Below are positions 1 through 57,894 of a stretch of 64,000 bases of DNA, piece by piece. The stretch is from Squalus acanthias. Its lineage: Eukaryota. Each line of letters begins with the position of its first letter. Position 1 is the first letter of the stretch. Made by a program: the position numbers and the translations under genes. The notes under the pieces are model-generated. The model was not told the origin of the DNA. It saw only the letters and a program-made list of their open reading frames with translations, and ran no database searches. The DNA is taken from the NCBI GenBank assembly GCA_030390025.1, contig CM059432.1:70496001-70560000 (forward strand), in the 5' to 3' direction.

Positions 1-244
1 AGGCAATATCTTCCCTTTCTAAATGCGTTCGATACTAAGACATTGTTACGTAGCTACTCCTCCAGCCTGCTCTTAAAATAGATCCCATTCTGGCACCTGT
101 TATGGTTAGGCTATAATTACCTAGATCAAATTTGTTCTCTTTTTCCCCCTGTTTCCGGTCCTGCAGAGCCACATCAGTGTTCAGCAGTTCTTCCATGACC
201 ATAGCCAGTGCCCCATTAAATCTATTTGATTTCCGGCTCTTCCC

Positions 245-281
245 AGTTCTGATGAAAGGTCATCGACCTGAAACGTTAACT
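245..281 (+). ncRNA. Minimal type I hammerhead ribozyme, copy 1
   Basis: Stem I agtt(245-248)/aact(278-281); core CTGATGA 249-255; extra A 256; stem II aggtc-atc-gacct 257-269; GAAA 270-273; palindromic ACGT in place of stem III; predicted cleavage after GUU (277). Confidence 0.8.
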
Positions 282-582
282 CTCTTTCTCTCTCCACGGA
301 TGCTGCCTGGCCTGCTGAGTTTTTCCAGCGTTTTCTGTTGTTATTTCGGATTTCCAGCATCCGCAGTATTTTGCTATCGTATTAATGTTTGGTTCACTGC
401 CACCTCTCTTCTTGGAATGCCTACCTTGAAGAAGTTCTGCTCTTCTCTTCGACGGGATTTCCGTTTGGCTCTTCTCTTAATATCTCTTAATGTCTCTTCA
501 TCTCCACCTTTGTTCCTTCATCCCCTCCCCCTTTTTCCAGCTTTACGCTGGCCTTAAATCTATTTGATTTCCGGCTCTTCCC

Positions 583-619
583 AGTTCTGATGAAAGGTCA
601 TCGACCTGAAACGTTAACT
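583..619 (+). ncRNA. Minimal type I hammerhead ribozyme, copy 2
   Basis: Identical to 245-281, 338 bp downstream. Confidence 0.8.
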
Positions 620-920
620 CTCTTTCTCTCTCCACGGATGCTGCCTGGCCTGCTGAGTTTTTCCAGCGTTTTCTGTTGTTATTTCGGATTTCCAGCATCT
701 GCAGTATTTTGCTATCGTATTAGTGTTTGGTTCACTGCCACCTCTCTTCTTGGAATGCCTACCTTGAAGAAGTTCTGCTCTTCTCTTCGACGGGATTTCC
801 GTTTGGCTCTTCTCTTAATGTCTTTTAATGTCTCTTCATCTCCACCTTTGTTCCTTCATCCCCTCCCCCTTTTCCCAGCTTTACCCTGGCCTTAAATCTA
901 TTTGATTTCCGGCTCTTCCC

Positions 921-957
921 AGTTCTGATGAAAGGTCATCGACCTGAAACGTTAACT
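921..957 (+). ncRNA. Minimal type I hammerhead ribozyme, copy 3
   Basis: Identical to 245-281, 676 bp downstream. Confidence 0.8.
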
Positions 958-2278
958 CTCTTTCTCTCTCCACGGATGCTGCCTGGCCTGCTGAGTTTTT
1001 CCAGCGTTTTCTGTTGTTATTCCCCATTACTTTCTGCTTGGTTTCCTTTAGCACCCTAGATGCATACCATCTCAACCAGGTATCTGCCATTACTATGGAG
1101 AGCTTTTCGCAAAACAGTTAAGACTCTTTGACAGTTGGTCATGAAGCAAAACTCCACCGTGCATAGTGCAAGGATATAATTAAGTGAATTTCATAGAACT
1201 AACACTATTTCTGAGAGGAAGATTTCAAGTGTTAATATTGATCTGATGTGCATAGAATATAATCTGAACAAAGCCTTTGTTTTTTCATTAGACAATAAGA
1301 ATTTTAAACAGTGTCCATCCCAGTGAATGGCCAAATGTTTTAATTACACACAAGCCTTTATACATAGCCCAGACCTTTTCTTTGGTGTGACTGCAAGTTT
1401 TAGCTCTTCCTGGGATGGAAGAGATGCAAATCCAGACACAGCCATGGAAGAAGGGAACAATTATCAATAACACAACTGCTAAATTGTCCTTTTTAATGGT
1501 AACACATCCTCTTCCAACTGCAGTATAGGAAACACCTGTATGAGCATTATTAGATTTACAATTTATTGGGAGGGTATCTACCAGCATTTTGATTTTGTTT
1601 TTGATTATGTCTGTGAAACACCTTGGGAGGTTTTTCTATGTTAAAGTGCTATATAAATGCAAGTAGTTTTTAAACACTTTTATATCCAATGTACATGCTG
1701 TGCATTTCCAAAGCTGCTGTTAAGGTTCAAAACGATATTATATTACTATTTACCATTTTGAAGAGTGTTCCTCCTAAACAGCTCCTAAATCAGTTTATAT
1801 TAAGCAACAGGCGATACTCAGTTTGGTTAGTCTGATCTCAAAGTTGATTGTTTTCATGTAACAGGAGCTACTACAGAAGATATATGTTCTTTCAAGGATA
1901 GACAATTCCTACCAGCCTACACAGCAAGTTTTAACTGTCTTTAAAGATTGTGAGGGGCTCAGGTGGATAGCCCCCAAAACGGGCGAGGGGATCGCGATGT
2001 GTGATTAACTAGCACTCGTTGATTGCAATGAAGGTATCACGCCAACTTTGTGCTGCCTACTCATTATAATGATTGCAGTGTGCAGCCAGCATTACCCACG
2101 CTGTTCATTGGCTGCACATATTGGCAGGGGGCCCAAAATTGTAACTTCATAGCACTAGTTAAAGCTAGCCTTCGCTGCTTAAAGCTAGCCTACACCTCTT
2201 AAAGGAGAGTTACATTGTGGCTGGAGCAGGTGCTGGCTGTCGGTCAGGAAGTGAATCTGACCTGGGAAACAGTGAAGA

Positions 2279-2949
2279 ATGGCACAACATGGGAGTGTGC
2301 GGGCTCCAAGGTTTTTGGACACTGCACTGGAGGCCTTAGTGGAGGAGGTGGTAAGGAGGAGAGATGTCCTGTATCCACAGGAGGCGCTCCAGACACACAC
2401 AAAAGGCAGTGGGAGCAGATAACCGTGGAGATCAATGCCAGGAATCAAGCCCCGAGGACCTGGACGCAGTTCTGCAAGAAGTTCAATTACCTCACACAAG
2501 TGGTCAAGGTCAGTGAATTCATCTTCAAATGCCATATCCCACAAACTGCACCACTAGCCTCAACCACTGCTCAATTCACCACACCCCATCACTCACCTAC
2601 CAACAATCTCTATCAATCAGGACTTACCTAACATTCACAGCTTCACCTCACCCTCATACACTTAGCACTGCTGCAAGCCTCACACCCACATCTCACAGCT
2701 TGCACACACTGTCAACTATTCAACCATGACAGCCACATCACCCAAACAGATTGCACGACACTCACTGACGCACTTCCCTCTCTCTCGCAGGACAAGGTGG
2801 CACACATCCGGAGGCAGCAGAAGCTAACCGGCGGGGGATAGGCGCACCTGCATTTCATAACCCCATGGAGGAGATGGTGCTGGCCATTATTGGAATGGCC
2901 ATTGCTGAGGCCGTTGCCAGTGGCGGGGCTGAAACCATCAAAGATGACG
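2279..2949 (+). pseudogene. Harbinger Myb/SANT DNA-binding gene, exons 2279-2508 and 2791-2949, frameshifted
   Basis: MAQHGSVRAPRFLDTALEALVEEVVRRRDVLYP...WEQITVEINARNQAPRTWTQFCKKFNYL. Donor AAG|gtcagt, acceptor ctctcgcag|. Exon 2 DKVAHIRRQQKLTGGG...MEEMVLAIIG is homologous to exon 2 at 8046-8205. Confidence 0.8.
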
Positions 2950-3063
2950 GTAACCTTATACCTAATTCTCCTTCTCACATCTTACTTCAGCAAACTGTGA
3001 GATGTTGCATATATCTCCAGCTCCAGCCTGGAAGGAGCCCGACACATAAAAGTTCATCATCAA

Positions 3064-3345
3064 GGTCACCTTCACAGCCACTGGCAATATGGTCCTTGCC
3101 CTGCTCTGAGGTTGCAGTTGTGGCTGCAGCAGGTGGCAGATTTCAGCGCAGACATCTCACACGTTGTTCCTTGCTGAGTTTCAGGTAGGAGAATTTCTCC
3201 CTGAACACGCTGGGCGGATATGGCCTCCTGGGCTTCTGCCCCTCCTCCTCCTCCCTCTTCTAGTAACTTGTCCTGCTCTTTGTGGTCTCAGCTCATTCTC
3301 CCAGCATGGTGTATTCCAAGGGAAATACCTACTAATGCACCCATG
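3064..3345 (-). pseudogene. Harbinger (HARBI1-like) transposase N-terminal remnant
   Basis: Manual translation across frameshifts gives RRPYPPSVFREKFSYLKLSKEQRVRCL...EICHLLQPQLQPQSRARTILPVAVKVT. No DDE core is present. Confidence 0.7.
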
Positions 3346-8788: not shown

Positions 8789-9540
8789 TCTTCCTGCAGG
8801 TGCCTCTAACATGCAAAGGCAGAAGCTTGGCAGCCTGCAGAGGAAGCAAGGCTTGTTGCAGACCTTAAATGCTGCAGCAATGATGACGTCATCGGAAGAG
8901 ACTTTCAGACTGGAAAAATTCACTGGCCATGGGTTCCCACACGTTGGAACTCAATTGGCCAATTATGTTAAAATCGCATCAATCTCCCACATCGATTTAG
9001 ATTCGGGTGGCTAACACAAAATGCGGATTACACGATCCCAACCCACCCCTGAATCAAAATCCAGCCCTTTGTGTTCTCCTCACAGCTAACTGTCCCACCT
9101 AGCTTGGTATCATCAGCAAACTTGGATACATTACACTCAGTCCATTCATCTAGATCATTAATATAGATTGTAAATAGCTGAGGCCCCAACACTGATCCTT
9201 GCTGCACCCCACTAGTTACAGCCTGCCAACCTGAAAAAGATCTCTGTTTTCTGTCCGTTAACCAATCCTCTATCCATGCTAATATATTACCCCCAACCCC
9301 ATGAGCTCTAATCTTGTGTAATAACCTTTTATGTGGCACCCTATCAAATGCCTTTTGGAAATCAAAATATACTACATCCACTGGCTCCCGTTTATCTATC
9401 CTGCTAGTTACATCCTCAAAAGACTCTAATAAATTTGTCAAACACGATTTCCCTTTCATAAAACCATGTTGGCTCTGCCTAATCATGTTATGATTTTCTA
9501 AGTGCCCTGATACCACTTCCTTAACAATGGATTCCTGGGG

Positions 9541-33092: not shown

Positions 33093-33305
33093 AAGGTAAT
33101 GTTTTGCAGTGCCGCCAGTTGAGGAAACCTTTCAGTGAACTGATGGACACCCAGGCATATAATTAGGGCTCGATAAAGAAGTAAGCAGTTGGAGCAACCC
33201 CGTTCTCCTCTTCCCCAACCCCACTAATTTTGAACATTCTGGATCACCATGTAGATGCACCAGGAGGTCCTCCAATCTACCTGCACACCAGGCAACCAGA
33301 GGTGA

Positions 33306-33432
33306 ATAGTAACAGAAAATGCTGGAGATACTCAGCAGGTCAGGCAGCATCTGTGAAGAGAGAAACAGAGTTAACGTTTCAGGTCGATGACCTTTTGCCA
33401 GTTCTGACGAAAGGTCATCGACCTGAAACGTT
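33306..33432. mobile_element. Inverted Penelope pLTR pair with hammerhead core (+ core 33400-33432)
   Basis: The - arm 33306-33395 is the reverse complement of 255-345. The + arm agttctgacgaaaggtcatcgacctgaaacgtt is truncated by a Harbinger end. Confidence 0.8.
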
Positions 33433-43447: not shown

Positions 43448-45454
43448 TCAGTAAAACTTTAGGTTTCTCTTTTTTTTTCTTTTTTTAAATCGGCATCTCA
43501 GCAACTTAGGGGTCACTTGAGTTCTAGTTAGGACACTAACTGGTTTCTCAATGTATGCGGAACCGTCCAGCGGGGGGTTTTCCATGTCACTGCTGACATA
43601 GGCTACGGGGGCTGCTGTAGGAGGAGGTGGTAAGGGAGGATATAATTCTCCCTCAGACGGTTTGCACCCTGGGCCTGTCTGTCTAGGACCTCGGCAATCC
43701 TTTGCAAAGTGTCCCACCTTTCTGCAGTTATAACATATCAAGGGTTGCTTACGGGGTGGCGTCCCTGGGTGGGCCTGAGGTCCCTCAACTACATGCACTG
43801 GCGTCTCTGCTGTTGGTACCTGGACCTGAGTTTTAGCGTAGGCCCATGCAGCATTAGCGTCTCTTAAAAGGTCTGTCCATTGCGAGTTGTGGCTGACAGT
43901 GTGCCCTAAGTCTGCTCGCAGTGAGGCCTGAATATTCTTTAAGTATATTTTCTTAAATGCTGCCTCATTCTTCCCGGTTAAGACATTATCATTGGGGCGT
44001 GCCTGCATCATCTCATAAACAGTGTACAACCGATCCCCGAATGCAGCAGGGATCTCATGAGGCCCTTGTTGAGACTGGCTTAATTTCTGAACCAGATCAA
44101 TAGTGTCCAAGCCCAGAGCTGTTTGTATAGTTGTGATTAAGTTATTCAGGGGGTTCCCCACATTAAAGGCAATGAATGGGAGACTGGTCCGTAGGTCCGG
44201 GGTCAAGGCAGACAGTATAACATTTTTCATGTCACTGTCCTCAAAACTAGGATGGTAATTCCGGAACCCCACTATACGTTGCCTTAGCTCCATGGGGCAT
44301 GTTTGTGGGTTAACTGGTCTGAATTGCTGGACACATGCCTGTAGTTCTGCATAGTTCAGGGGCTGGGACCATTCATAAGTACCCACCCACAGCATTCCCG
44401 GGTGGGCTGCCTCTGGTTGTGCTCCTGCTTGTGCCTGGACACCGTCAGCAGCTGGTGGCACGTTAGGAATCACCTGGGTGCGAGTCAGAATATTAACTGG
44501 GGCTTTAGCGGGTGCAGGCTCGTCCACTGAGGTTTTTATGATATTGTTATCAGCATAGGCTGGGAGCCTCTTAGCCAGGTCGATGGTGGCATATGAGACG
44601 GGGGCCTTTTGGGGAGGGGGTAGCAAGGGAGGATATAGTTCTCCACTTAACTCCTCACATTCTTTATCATAACTCACAGGGGGGTCTATTCCCGTGACTG
44701 CCGCTATTACAGCCTGTTGTTTACCCAGCTGGTTTTCCAACTGTTGTATAGTAATATGACACTGCCTGTGGTCCCGACTCCCTTTGGGGGTGCTGAAGAG
44801 CCTCTCTTAGGGCTCCTCATGAATCATTTAATTGTCTGGTAAGACAGTCATTGTCTTTTGTTAAGGAGGCTACCTGACACTGAGCCTCCTCAAGGTTCTA
44901 CATTGCAGCGCCAGCGTGAACTGCATTAATACTCTGGTGCTGTATTATTGCTGTCTAAGCACCAACCAGGCACTGAAGAACTTCATTTTGTTTCTGAAGA
45001 GCTTCATTCTTACTTTTTAACTCTGCAGCCTCTTTTTCCCAGTTTGACTTCTCGCCCGTTAACTTTAGATTCTCTTCTATCAGCCGTAGCTTGTCTTTTT
45101 CTAATTTATCCTGGTTGTCCTCTAACTTGATTTTATTATTTTCCATCTCTAGGAAGGTCTCTTTATCTTGCTCTACACAATACACAGCTGCACTGCCCTA
45201 TCTGGCTTCCATTTCTTCTCCTTAACTTGTTTCTCAATGAACGCAACAACGTCGTCAAAGGATACTCTCTCACCCTTGGTTAGACATTCTACTACTAACG
45301 TCTGTAACTGTGCATCCTCGCACTTCTTCATTAACTTCGTTTTAAAGTCTACAAAAAAATTCTCACTCAACATTCTGCTGTACGTTAAAGAGACACTATC
45401 TGTTAGATAACCTAACTTTCCACAAGGACTTTCATTGATCAGTCAAAAATCCAT
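43448..45454 (-). pseudogene. gag: gag-like gene: N-terminal coiled-coil, capsid-like region, CCHC zinc knuckle; 5' part frameshifted, 430 codons open
   Basis: ATG 45454 about 47 nt after the PBS; ORFs 45173-45373, 44955-45185 and 43448-44740; CYNCRKVGHFAKDC at 43694-43735. Confidence 0.85.
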
Positions 45455-53845: not shown

Positions 53846-56800
53846 AACAATGGATTCCAGCATTTTCCTGACGACTGATGTCAGGCTAACTGGCCTGTAG
53901 TTCCCTGTTTTCTCTCCCTCCTTTCTTGAATAGCGGTGTTACATTTGCTACCTTCCAATCTGCTGGGACCGTTATAGAATCTAGGGAATTTTGGAAGATC
54001 AAAACCAATGCAATCACTATCTCTGCAGCCACCTCTTTTAGAACCCTAGGATGTAGGCTGTCGGGTCCAGGGGATTTGCCGGCTTTTAGCCCCATTAGTT
54101 TCTCTAGTACTTTTTCTCCTCTTATATTAATTACGTTAAGTTCCTCACCCTCATTAGACCCTTGGTTCCCCACCATTTTTGGTATGCTTTTTGTGTCTTT
54201 TACTGTGAAGACAGATACAAAATATTTGTTTAACATTTCTGCCATTTCCTTATTCCCCATAATAATTTCTGCTGTCTCAGGCTCTAAGGAACCAACATTT
54301 ACTTTTGCTACTCTCTTCCTTTTTACATACTTGTCGAAGCTCTTACAATCTGTTTTTATATTTCTTGCTAGTTTTCTCATTTTATTCCCTTTTTATCAAT
54401 TTTTTGGTCCTCCTTTGCTGGTTTCTGAAACTCTCCCAATCCTCAGGCTTACTACTATTCTTTGCAACATTATGAGAGTCTTCTTTCAATCTAATGCTAT
54501 CCTTAACTTCTTTAGTTAGCCACGGATGGATCACTTTTCCCGTGGAGTTTTTGTTTCTCAATGGAATGTATTTTTGTTGAGAATTATGAAATATTTCTTT
54601 AAATACCAGCCACTGCTTATCTACCGCCATACCTTTTAATCTATTTTTCCAATCTACCTTAGCCAACTCGCCCCTCATACCTATGTAATTGGTTTTATTT
54701 AAGTTTAAGACTCTAGTTTCGGACTTAGGCAAGTCACTCTCAAACTTAATGTGAAATTTTATCATATTATGATCACTCTGCCCCAGAGGATCCTTTACTA
54801 TGAGATTGCTAATTAACCCTCTCTCATTACAGAATACAAGATCTAAAATAGCCTGTTCCCTGGTTGGTTCCATGACACATTGTTCTAGAAAACAGTCCCT
54901 AGTGCATTCCATGAACTCGTCCTCCAGACTACCTTTGCCAATTTGATTTGTCCAGTCTATATGAAGCTTAAAGTCCCAAACAATTATTGCATTACCTTTG
55001 TTACAAGCTCCTACTATTTCTTGATTAATATTCTGTCCAACAGTATAGTTACTGTTGGGGGGCCTATATACTACTCCCACCAGTGTTTTCTGCCCCTTGT
55101 TATTCCTTATCTCTACCCATACTGATTTACTTCCTGATGTTCTGAGCCGAGATCTTTTCTCTCTACTGTCCTTATGTCATCCTTTATTATCAGGGCTACC
55201 CCCCCCCCCTTCTTTTCCATTCTGCCTGTCTTTTTGAAACATCAAGTACCCTGGAACATTTAGTTCCCAACCTTGGTCACCTTGCAACCACGTCTCTGTA
55301 ATGGCTATTCGATCAAACCCATTTATCTCTATTTGTGCCATTAGTTTGTCTATCTTATGAATGCTTTGTACATTCAGATAAAGAGCCTTTAATTTAATTT
55401 TTTTTAACCAGTGTTCCTTGCTTTGACCTTGATTTCTGCTGCACTGCTACCATTGAACTCTCTGTCCCTTCCTGTCACACTCTGCTTATTTCTACCCAAA
55501 TCGCTACACTGCTCTATTGCCTTGACCTTTCTCTTTAGATTTCTAAATTTCCCCTCACCTGACCCCTCCCCCCCACCTTTTTCAGTTTAAAGCCCTATCT
55601 ACAGCCCTAGTTATTCGATTCGCTAGGACGCTGGTCCCAGCCCGGTTTAAGTGGAGCCCGTCCCAATGGAACAGCTCCCTCTTTCCCCAGTACTGGTGCC
55701 AGTGCCTCATGAATTGAAACCCCTTCTTCCCACATAATTCTCTGATCTGCTTGACCCTTTGCCAATTTGCACGTGGCTCAGGTAGTAATCCAGAGATTAT
55801 TACCCTTGAGGTTCTGCTTATTAATTTAGACCCTAGCTCTTCAAACTCCCTCAGCAGAACCTCATTCTGAGTTCTATCTGTCGTTGGTTCCTACATGGAC
55901 CACAACAACTGGATCCTCACCCTCCCACTCCAAGTTCTTCTCCAGCCGCGGGGAGATATCCTTAACCCAGCCTCAGGGACTCTCTTTCGTGGCTGCAGAG
56001 AACAGTATCTATCCCCCTGACTATACTGCCCCCCTCCCACTACCACATTCCTTCCTTCTTCCCCCCCCCCCCCCCCCCCGCCCCCCACCACCTGGATGGC
56101 CCCCTGTACCACGGTGCCATGGTCAGTTTGCCCATCCTCCCTGCAGTCCTTTTCCTCATCCACACAGATAGCAAATACATCGTACCTGTTGGACAAGGTC
56201 AAGGGCTGAGGCTCCTCCATCACTATATCCTGGGTCCCCATACCTTCCTGACTCGCGGTCACACCCTCCTGTCGCTGACCATTGACTAACTCTAAAGTAC
56301 TGCTTAACCTAAAGGGTGTGACTGCCTCCTGGAACAAAGTGTCCAGGTAACTCTCCCCCTCCCTGATGCATCGCAATGTCTGCAGCTCGTACTCCAGCTC
56401 AATAACTCTGAGCCGAAGTTCCTCGAGTTGCAGACATTTACTGCAGATGTGGTTGCTCGGGATCACGATGCTCTCCACAAACTCCCACATGCTGCAGTTA
56501 CGACACACCACCTGGCCTGCCATCTCTAACCTTGTTTTATTTATTAATTAATTAGTTAAAGCTTTTATTAAATTGATATTTTAGTTTTATTGTTTATTTT
56601 ATCTAGTTTATTAATTTAATAAGTATTAGCAAGTTACAGTTTCTCAGCTCTTAATTTAACCCCTTCCCTAACTTAGAGAGCAAAAAAAAGCTGTAATCCT
56701 CACCAACCAATCACTTACCTGTTCTCCTGTGATGTCACTCTTTGATTTTTTTTTGTTGTTTCTGAATCGGAGCCTCGCGCTGCCGCTGCTTTAATTCAGG

Positions 56801-57894
56801 TCCGCTCTCGGGCCGCTCTTTATCCTCTCGCCGCTGCTTTAATTCAGGTCCACTCTCGGTCCGCTCTTTATTCTCTCGCCGCTGCCTTAATTCAGGTCCG
56901 CTCTCGGGCCGCTCTTTATTCTCCTGCCGCTGCTTTAATTCAGGTCCGCTCTCGGGCCGCTCTTTATTCTCTCGCCGCTGCCTTAATTCAGGTCCACTCT
57001 CGGTCCGCTCTTTATTCTCTCGCCGCTGCCTTAATTCAGGTCCACTCTCGGTCCGCTCTTTATTCTCCTGCCGCTGCTTTAATTCTGGTCCGCTCTCGGT
57101 CCGCTCTTTATTCTCCTGCCGCTGCTTTAATTCTGGTCCGCTCTTTATTCTCCTGCCTCTGCTTTAATTCAGGTCCGCTCTCGGGCCGCTCTTTATCCTC
57201 TCGCCGCTGCTTTAATTCAGGTCCGCTCTCGGGCCGCTGTTTATTCTCCTGCCGCTGCCACTGCTTTAATTCAGGTCCACTCTCGGTCCGCTCTTTATCC
57301 TCTCGCCGCTGCTTTAATTCAGGTCCGCTCTTGGTCCGCTCTTTATTCTCCTGCCGCTGCTTTAATTCAGGTCCGCTCTCGGGCCGCTCTTTATTCTCCT
57401 GCCGCTGCTTTAATTCAGGTCCGCTCTCGGGCCGCTCTTTATTCTCCTCGCGCTGCCACTGCTTTAATTCAGATCCGCTCTCGGGCCGCTGTTTATTCTC
57501 TCGCCGCTGCTTTAATTCAGGTCCGCTCTCGGTCCGCTCTTTATTCTCTCGCCGCTGCCTTAATTCAGGTCCACTCTCGGTCCGCTCTTTATTCTCTCGC
57601 CGCTGCCTTAATTCAGGTCCACTCTCGGTCCGCTCTTTATTCTCTCGCCGCTGCCTTAATTCGGGTCCACTCTCGGTCCGCTCTTTATTCTCTCGCCGCT
57701 GCCGCTGCTTTAATTCAGGTCCACTCTCGGTCCGCTGTTTATTCTCTCGCCGCTGCCTTAATTCAGGTCCACTCTCGGTCCGCTCTTTATTCTCTCGCCG
57801 CTGCTTTAATTCAGGTCCACTCTCGGGCCGCTCTTTATTCTCTCGCCGCTGCTTTAATTCAGGTCCGCTCTTTATTCTCTCGCCGCTGCCGCTG
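53846..57894 (-). mobile_element. 5' half of a second CR1 (same subfamily as the 5-14.7 kb copy) with a tandem-repeat 5' end
   Basis: ORF1 55891-56523 (MAGQVVCRNCSMWE...), EN 54382-55080, linker 53886-54380; breaks at aacaatggattcc. Confidence 0.88.
56783..57894. repeat. 48-bp tandem repeat (about 23 units) at the CR1 5' terminus
   Basis: Unit ccgctgctttaattcaggtccgctctcgggccgctctttattctctcg with minor variants; no unique spacers. Confidence 0.95.

Follow-up and report, generated by a model that had tools for sequence, protein, structure and literature searches.

The window, i.e., the whole 64,000-nt stretch of Squalus acanthias DNA analyzed here, carries at 211-1029 a short tandem array with target site duplications (TSDs) on either side, and its features are collected in Table 1. 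TRF reported a tandem repeat at 216-1021 with a period of 338, 2.4 copies, and 98% matches, and CCCCATTA was found at both flanks, in agreement with a preliminary description of this DNA as a 2.4-mer within an 8-bp TSD. At the 5' junction, 3 nt of microhomology were observed, as 216-218 match the unit start, and the 3' end of the partial unit, at 1021, would be the site where the reverse transcriptase (RT) started. The two complete units differ at 362, 385, 482, 486, 536, and 547, and these 6 differences in 468 overlapping bases are the most among the 20 arrays compared, the others showing 0-3. Beyond the 101-codon stub frame, the unit has no coding capacity.

Table 1. Features of the tandem array, in window positions; parent positions are those of the reference copy named in the text.
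Feature	Position	Strand	Remarks
Left TSD, CCCCATTA	211..218	+	Last 3 bases (216-218) overlap the unit start
Unit 1	216..553	+	Parent 1-259 joined to 3120-3200
Minimal type I hammerhead 1	245..281	+	Predicted cut after 277 (GUU); anatomy as in PMC4209133
5' stub of the parent ORF	252..474	+	Open frame from ATG 252 through ATG 417; repeated at 590-812
Junction 1 (parent 259 / 3120)	473..474	+	2-nt TC microhomology; private to the window locus
Terminal 81 nt of the parent 3' UTR (3120-3200)	473..553	+	Pyrimidine-rich; repeated at 811-891
Unit 2	554..891	+	Junction as in unit 1; sequence differs from it at 6 positions
Minimal type I hammerhead 2	583..619	+	Predicted cut after 615
Junction 2	811..812	+	Identical to junction 1
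Partial unit 3	892..1021	+	Parent 1-130; 3' end at the first of the two 3'-end clusters of the family
Minimal type I hammerhead 3	921..957	+	Predicted cut after 953
Right TSD, CCCCATTA	1022..1029	+	

The hammerhead motifs, 37 nt each, identical, and 338 nt apart, lie where the preliminary description had placed them. The core pattern gave 3 matches in the window and 0 in 100 shuffles, and all core positions are intact, with CTGATGA followed by an extra A and then by GAAA. Stem I is AGTT/AACT and stem II AGGTC/GACCT (5 bp); the extra A and the palindromic stem III, ACGT, are present as had been described. The cut after the GUU at 277 is predicted from the usual numbering of hammerhead positions. 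Canonical features are missing, i.e., stem I has 4 bp and not 6, loop 2 has 3 nt, and stem III is palindromic, and an Rfam scan of window positions 1-3000, suggested earlier as a check of the motif, returned no match at E up to 10. Among 386 copies of the family, the cleavage triplet was GTT in 242 and GTC in 129. A second hammerhead family (CTTCAC ... GCTT GTGA) was seen in a few flanks of the loci examined and likely belongs to another Penelope-like element (PLE). Elsewhere in the window, a 48-nt minisatellite (56782-57871; 22.6 copies), in which each strand has stop-free frames, adjoins a LINE-like leader, and a 452-aa stop-free frame on the minus strand (43448-44806) has a gag-like CCHC knuckle.

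The parent of the unit is a 3.2-kb PLE with RT and GIY-YIG, i.e., the autonomous partner sharing the pLTR that had been suggested as something to look for. In a search of the genome (3.7 Gb; 40 of 2151 candidates scored), 15 places matched unit 1-259 and then diverged from the unit, and all 15 were examined. The parent period was 3190-3202 nt in the 10 copies measured, the copies are about 99% alike, and 9 of the 15 full-length copies keep an unbroken ORF of at least 971 aa from an ATG in the hammerhead core, or 916 aa from the second ATG (that at window 417). Parent positions are numbered on one natural copy, L037:4430-7629, on which the window unit maps as 1-259 plus 3120-3200, with a TC common to both pieces at the joint; the origin from a Penelope pLTR, proposed from the sequence of the array, is thus upheld. 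The unit is 99.6% identical to the parent over the first 259 nt and lacks 2862 of its 3200 nt. From the ATG at 417, taken earlier for the possible stump of a parent ORF, the first 19 codons are indeed identical to that ORF, and the parent frame extends upstream of 417, open to the ATG within the hammerhead core (window 252). In the reference copy (L037:4466-7381), the frame is open from this core ATG, located 26 nt before the cut, and an Anolis element has been reported with an equal distance (PMC11167929).

Pfam matches of the parent protein were weak, with RVT_1 at E 9.6e-6 and GIY-YIG at E 5.5e-4, neither of which reached its curated cut-off, and DKG, YIDD, and GIY-YIG-like motifs can be read in its translation, the latter at the C-terminus. 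A PDB sequence search with this protein gave no match. The linker between RT and endonuclease (EN) contains C-x4-C-x2-C; a CX2-5CxxC linker marks Neptune and Nematis (PMC8557442), and by this motif the parent appears to be of the Neptune type. It also shows features of EN+ PLEs, i.e., partial tandems forming pLTRs, inverted 5' arms, an optional tail of 30-40 nt, and a minimal hammerhead in the pLTR. The family is young and very abundant, with exact genome matches numbering 10,768 for parent 63-95, 7239 for the 3200/1 boundary, 5627 for the GUU core, 575 for parent 241-265, and 525 for 337-361. A position-ordered sample of 60 loci consisted mostly of single 5'-truncated insertions, and one (L070) had a mini-junction. 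Three parent 5' ends about 3199 nt apart (G000:C4:15716408-15722829) are likely a full-length trimer. On C1, a truncated copy (2696-3200 + 1-132) occurs six times at L055-L057 (G000:C1, about 6.99-7.13 Mb), twice at 1678-nt spacing; these spacings were rejected as mini-units, being duplications with flanking DNA.

The ends of family members were compared with the predicted cut. None of the 36 matches sampled in 30 loci starts at it (unit 63), and none of the family junctions lies at 62/63, where a religated cut would leave no trace. Short copies of the family start at unit 15-48, with 8 of 10 at 27-40; longer 5' ends in this survey were indel artefacts and were left out. In the short insertions L148-L177 and L048-L107, too, most starts fall at unit 27-40, which is the 5' edge of the hammerhead, and unit 28-34 resembles an initiator motif. 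Since later rounds in arrays end there as well, a start at 27-40 may be a stop of the RT and not an RNA end. Cores ending at unit 62 were found in 3 of 310 cases, one of them in the window, and each of the three may be due to another insertion at that spot. The case in the window (33305-33432) consists of head-to-head truncated ends of the same family as the array, and its plus arm (unit 22-62) ends precisely where the cut is predicted, with another repeat coming next, a copy of which lies at 8875-9041; L142 and L106 also stop at unit 62. Either cleaved RNA served as the template at these stops, or another element inserts at TTA.

A genome search for the window junction gave 2 exact matches, each of them within the window array, and a private variant common to both units was likewise found, as an exact pattern, only there; as exact patterns were used, mutated sisters of the array could be missed. 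Joints between the ORF stub and the 3' UTR end had 171 genome matches, compared with the 575 exact ones for parent 241-265, and there were 131 hammerhead pairs 217-497 nt apart, the first 100 of which represent 69 places; the periods of such pairs were surveyed up to about 500 nt. In total, 161 junction copies were scored at 89 loci (88 places, as L023 and L024 overlap), with 76 distinct junctions; loci that failed the score filter or had no ORF stub were dropped (7 of 40, 5 of 35, and 2 from the first genome search), and the sample is non-random, with 30 loci taken by their likeness to the window unit and the others by patterns that bound the period. Periods at the other loci ranged from about 246 to 503 nt and were 300-399 nt at 58 of 66 places among the matches listed, though the pattern allowed 277-527. 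Fifteen junctions occurred at more than one locus. By our reading, 11 of these lie on clearly different subfamily backgrounds and therefore recur rather than descend from one source, and the remaining four, with no or slight background difference, could be sisters. The array had been thought to represent a spreading family of 338-nt monomers; this did not hold, as its junction and variant are private, other periods differ, and the joints lie away from the cut. No multi-copy family spreading as a unit was found with the exact patterns and among the scored loci. Two side cases were observed: at L114 and L119, junction 131/3113 lands on the normal RT start site and gives a 218-nt repeat with no ORF stub, and a further mini-array with a period of 276 and four matches lies at G000:C15:22647328-22648189.

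Most donor ends of the family junctions fall in the pyrimidine-rich end of the parent 3' UTR (3120-3200). The signature set comprised 72 distinct junctions, each with its left end somewhere in 250-334, drawn from a sample partly chosen by likeness and patterns, and its statistics are therefore indicative only: microhomology at the junctions was 1-3 nt, 8 of the 72 were blunt vs. 70.5% for random joins, TC made up 23 of 28 two-base overlaps vs. 23% expected, 5 of the 8 blunt junctions were G/C vs. 8.5% expected, and 51 of the 72 allow a donor that begins with a C preceded by T, vs. 29 expected. The left ends (acceptors) cluster at 269, 284, 290, 304, and 307, with 108 sharing pairs vs. 35 ± 6 in 5000 draws. 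No tight cluster of donor start sites was found, the donors being spread from 3075 to position 16. The statement that TC is present at every junction (26 loci) was too strong, as the wider set has other overlaps. Where units of a locus differ by at least 6 nt, they differ at the junction itself (L023, L027, L134, and L137, with variant junction 256/3199 common to L134 and L137); the exceptions were L116 and L194, whose length differences match a 10-nt repeat. We infer a real discontinuity that is crossed in each round by short pairing and not by blunt ligation. In the test for a cap-templated G at homologous jumps, T>G before C was found in 4 of 2202 cases in 3075-3200 and in 3 of 3312 in 1-130. 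The D. virilis Penelope has a known start site in that portion of its pLTR which belongs to the 3' UTR (PMC2377424), which makes capped 5' ends plausible donors. Back-splicing was ruled out as the source of the joint, as there is no GT/AG at the window junction, and off-target hammerhead cleavage at the acceptors was dropped, as several of them end in G.

The insertions that bear junctions share their 3' ends with ordinary copies of the family, 45 of 88 ending at 125-133 and 33 of 88 at 160-170; the twin 3' ends of an Anolis PLE are internal RT start sites in vitro (PMC11167929). Among the 40 non-inverted arrays, 22 had TSDs of at least 7 bp (with up to 8 nt of slack). The same junction was found at least twice in 34 of 92 arms, and in 18 of these 34 the 5' end lies beyond the arm's own 3' end; L003 and L144 carry extra 5' pieces. 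As these 18 arms have no terminal repeat, their second junction did not come from unequal exchange and was thus in the original cDNA. Reverse transcription of more than one unit per insertion, as had been put forward for the window array, is therefore established in 18 of the 34 arms and is likely at the window locus, which is one of the 16 arms that the terminal-repeat test leaves undecided. All scored junctions were identical within the locus in 15 of 20 multi-junction loci, and no variable columns between units were found in L122, L132 (9 units), L134, L137, L140, and L143. In L028, several (about five) private C-to-T changes are common to both passes, which suggests an edited or decayed template; a decayed genomic source could explain them.

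The array derives from the parent by internal deletion, and we consider it probable that it arose in one target-primed insertion, the RT making about 2.4 rounds on a short template from the beginning of the parent RNA. The 5' end of such a template would lie in the pyrimidine tract that precedes the hammerhead, at about 3075-3200, where transcription possibly starts, and its other end within the ORF, at about 250-335. Beginning at an internal tail site (130 or 165), the RT would copy up to the 5' end and beyond it, pair anew over 1-3 bases, mostly UC, with the opposite end of this RNA, and repeat. The template could be a covalent circle or a linear RNA whose ends are kept together, and we lean to repeated jumps; the identical junctions within arrays (up to 9 units, in L132) fit a covalent circle or later DNA amplification equally. 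The hammerhead would simply be carried along, since it sits between the template ends, and the array can be explained without any cleavage by it. The single locus in the window is an ordinary insertion, and probably inert.

A later duplication has a modest chance of being the explanation at the window locus: an inserted 1.4-mer would have become a 2.4-mer by unequal exchange or slippage between its 130-nt terminal repeats. Because the array starts at unit 1-4, its 130-nt terminal repeat also allows this DNA-level step, and a start at unit 1-4 with an end at 130 is the layout expected from exchange. Moreover, the genome-unique variant is common to both units while these differ at 6 sites, and local amplification by unequal crossover has been proposed for such repeats (bioRxiv 10.64898/2026.07.22.740005). 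However, shared private variants were also found in arms with no terminal overlap (L007 and L028), so the variants are not decisive, and duplication cannot account for the 18 of 34 arms that lack this overlap.

Somewhat less probable still is a true retrozyme cycle, in which a deleted copy with two hammerheads would be transcribed and cut to 338-nt monomers, and these circularized and rolled by a PLE RT. No core position is disrupted, and a dimer of two hammerheads at their 338-nt spacing can be drawn on 245-619; however, this fold is 9.6 kcal/mol above the free minimum in ViennaRNA, where the catalytic core is unscored. The 338-nt monomer is not strongly self-paired, with z -1.5 for the fold of the circle and -1.7 for the linear form, unlike the highly self-paired circles described in PMC7229834. 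One Xenopus hammerhead dimer of nine tested cleaved well (bioRxiv 10.64898/2026.07.22.740005), whereas minimal PLE hammerheads were reported to cleave poorly even as dimers (PMC4209133), and that of the Anolis PLE needed protein for cleavage and was dispensable for insertion in vitro (PMC11167929). Identical junctions within arrays would fit a circle, and circles have been proposed as templates for more-than-unit PLE insertions (PMC4209133), yet the sampled copies do not start at the cut, the shared junctions lie mostly on different backgrounds, and no sister or source copy was found in the genome with exact patterns, which could be due to a source allele absent from one assembly. The pLTR is deeply covered by contigs of three runs that are presumably RNA, and those of two such runs (organisms A and B) contain the 304/3162 joint at depths of 135 and 362; the confirmed RNA run, X11, had 2 contigs only. 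This joint does not demonstrate a circle, as it is also present as DNA at one locus in the genome.

Covalent circles formed with no ribozyme, from parent RNA cut after pyrimidines by a host nuclease, ligated, and rolled by the RT, would be compatible with the junctions being identical within most arrays, and cutting after UC at both ends would mimic the TC microhomology, but they are very improbable, as 5 of 8 blunt junctions end in G on the left, which a pyrimidine-specific cut would not produce, and where units vary, it is the junction that differs; such circles would modify the looping explanation and do not amount to a separate origin.

The interest lies in the genome-wide pattern and not in the single locus, since with this pattern one can test how PLE tandems and retrozymes originate. 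The formation of PLE tandems was called unexplained in 2008 (PMC2377424), and the origin of non-LTR retrozymes from PLEs is described as still open (bioRxiv 10.64898/2026.07.22.740005); the present family offers a living parent together with dozens of young arrays with mapped junctions. De novo arrays from RT looping may show the birth of retrozymes, and pipelines based on repeats plus hammerheads will score one-off RT by-products as retrozyme families. More tentatively, and with a fair share of doubt, it is possible that the Penelope RT, a sister of the telomerase RT, performs a telomerase-like addition of repeats on a short RNA from its own 5' region, in rounds of about 250-450 nt and up to ten per insertion, re-annealing either at UC, over 1-3 bases, or at G, through a cap-templated C; this would continually spawn hammerhead arrays that seed non-LTR retrozymes, and the same jump on full-length RNA would give PLEs their partial tandems.

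Penelope-derived tandem repeats with hammerheads are already known (bioRxiv 10.64898/2026.07.22.740005), and junctions that differ per insertion were not found in the literature consulted. Non-LTR retrozymes are multi-copy tandem repeats whose hammerheads are mostly canonical and whose circles are highly self-paired, with PLEs as likely partners (Cervera and de la Pena 2020, PMC7229834), and Li, Clavereau and Pollet (2026, bioRxiv 10.64898/2026.07.22.740005) reported such repeats, linked to pLTRs, in 20 of 31 vertebrates. Their preprint, which accepts minimal hammerhead motifs too, lists one chondrichthyan genome with non-LTR retrozymes (mean consensus, 363 bp), and the earlier remark that no such family was known in sharks has thus been overtaken. 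The window array resembles these elements in its units of a few hundred nt with one type I hammerhead each, its low GC, its TSD of more than 4 bp (8 bp), and its pLTR kinship with a PLE; its tandem units fall within 150-450 nt and have no LTR, PBS, or PPT, and it would pass the filter of the preprint (at least 2 units with complete hammerheads). Three retrozyme features are absent from it, i.e., family spread, a canonical ribozyme, and a self-paired monomer: the array has no sister copies, unit length and junction being specific to each locus, the ribozyme is of the minimal PLE type and lacks the canonical contacts between loop 1 and loop 2, and self-pairing is not strong. Also unlike non-LTR retrozymes, the unit is nearly identical to a living parent.

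With EN+ PLEs of the Neptune type (PMC8557442, PMC4209133), the parent shares its ORF, linker, partial tandems, and inverted 5' arms, as well as two 3' ends about 33 nt apart (PMC8557442). The extra base after A9 and the palindromic stem III are as in the PLE hammerheads of PMC4209133, whereas stem II opens with A-U in the window and with G-C in the consensus of that work. In the sections consulted, the descriptions of EN+ PLEs (PMC8557442, PMC4209133) contain no short arrays near the pLTR with a junction per insertion, and no PLE mini-arrays of this kind were found in the consulted parts of PMC6155905, PMC3846280, PMC6765202, and PMC12039810, or in the remainder of a literature search that covered few subscription papers. 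The Anolis PLE PAc (Frangieh et al. 2024, PMC11167929) is similar to the parent in its two adjacent internal RT start sites, which give the tail, and in the ORF start inside the hammerhead; unlike the parent, it belongs to the Penelope/Poseidon clade, and the sections consulted report no looping on a mini-template. Finally, DRT2 and telomerase (PMC12039810) offer a functional analogy only, as there, too, an RT makes tandem DNA by re-annealing over a few bases on a limited RNA; their template and jump are fixed and functional, whereas in the present family the ends vary and the product resembles a by-product.
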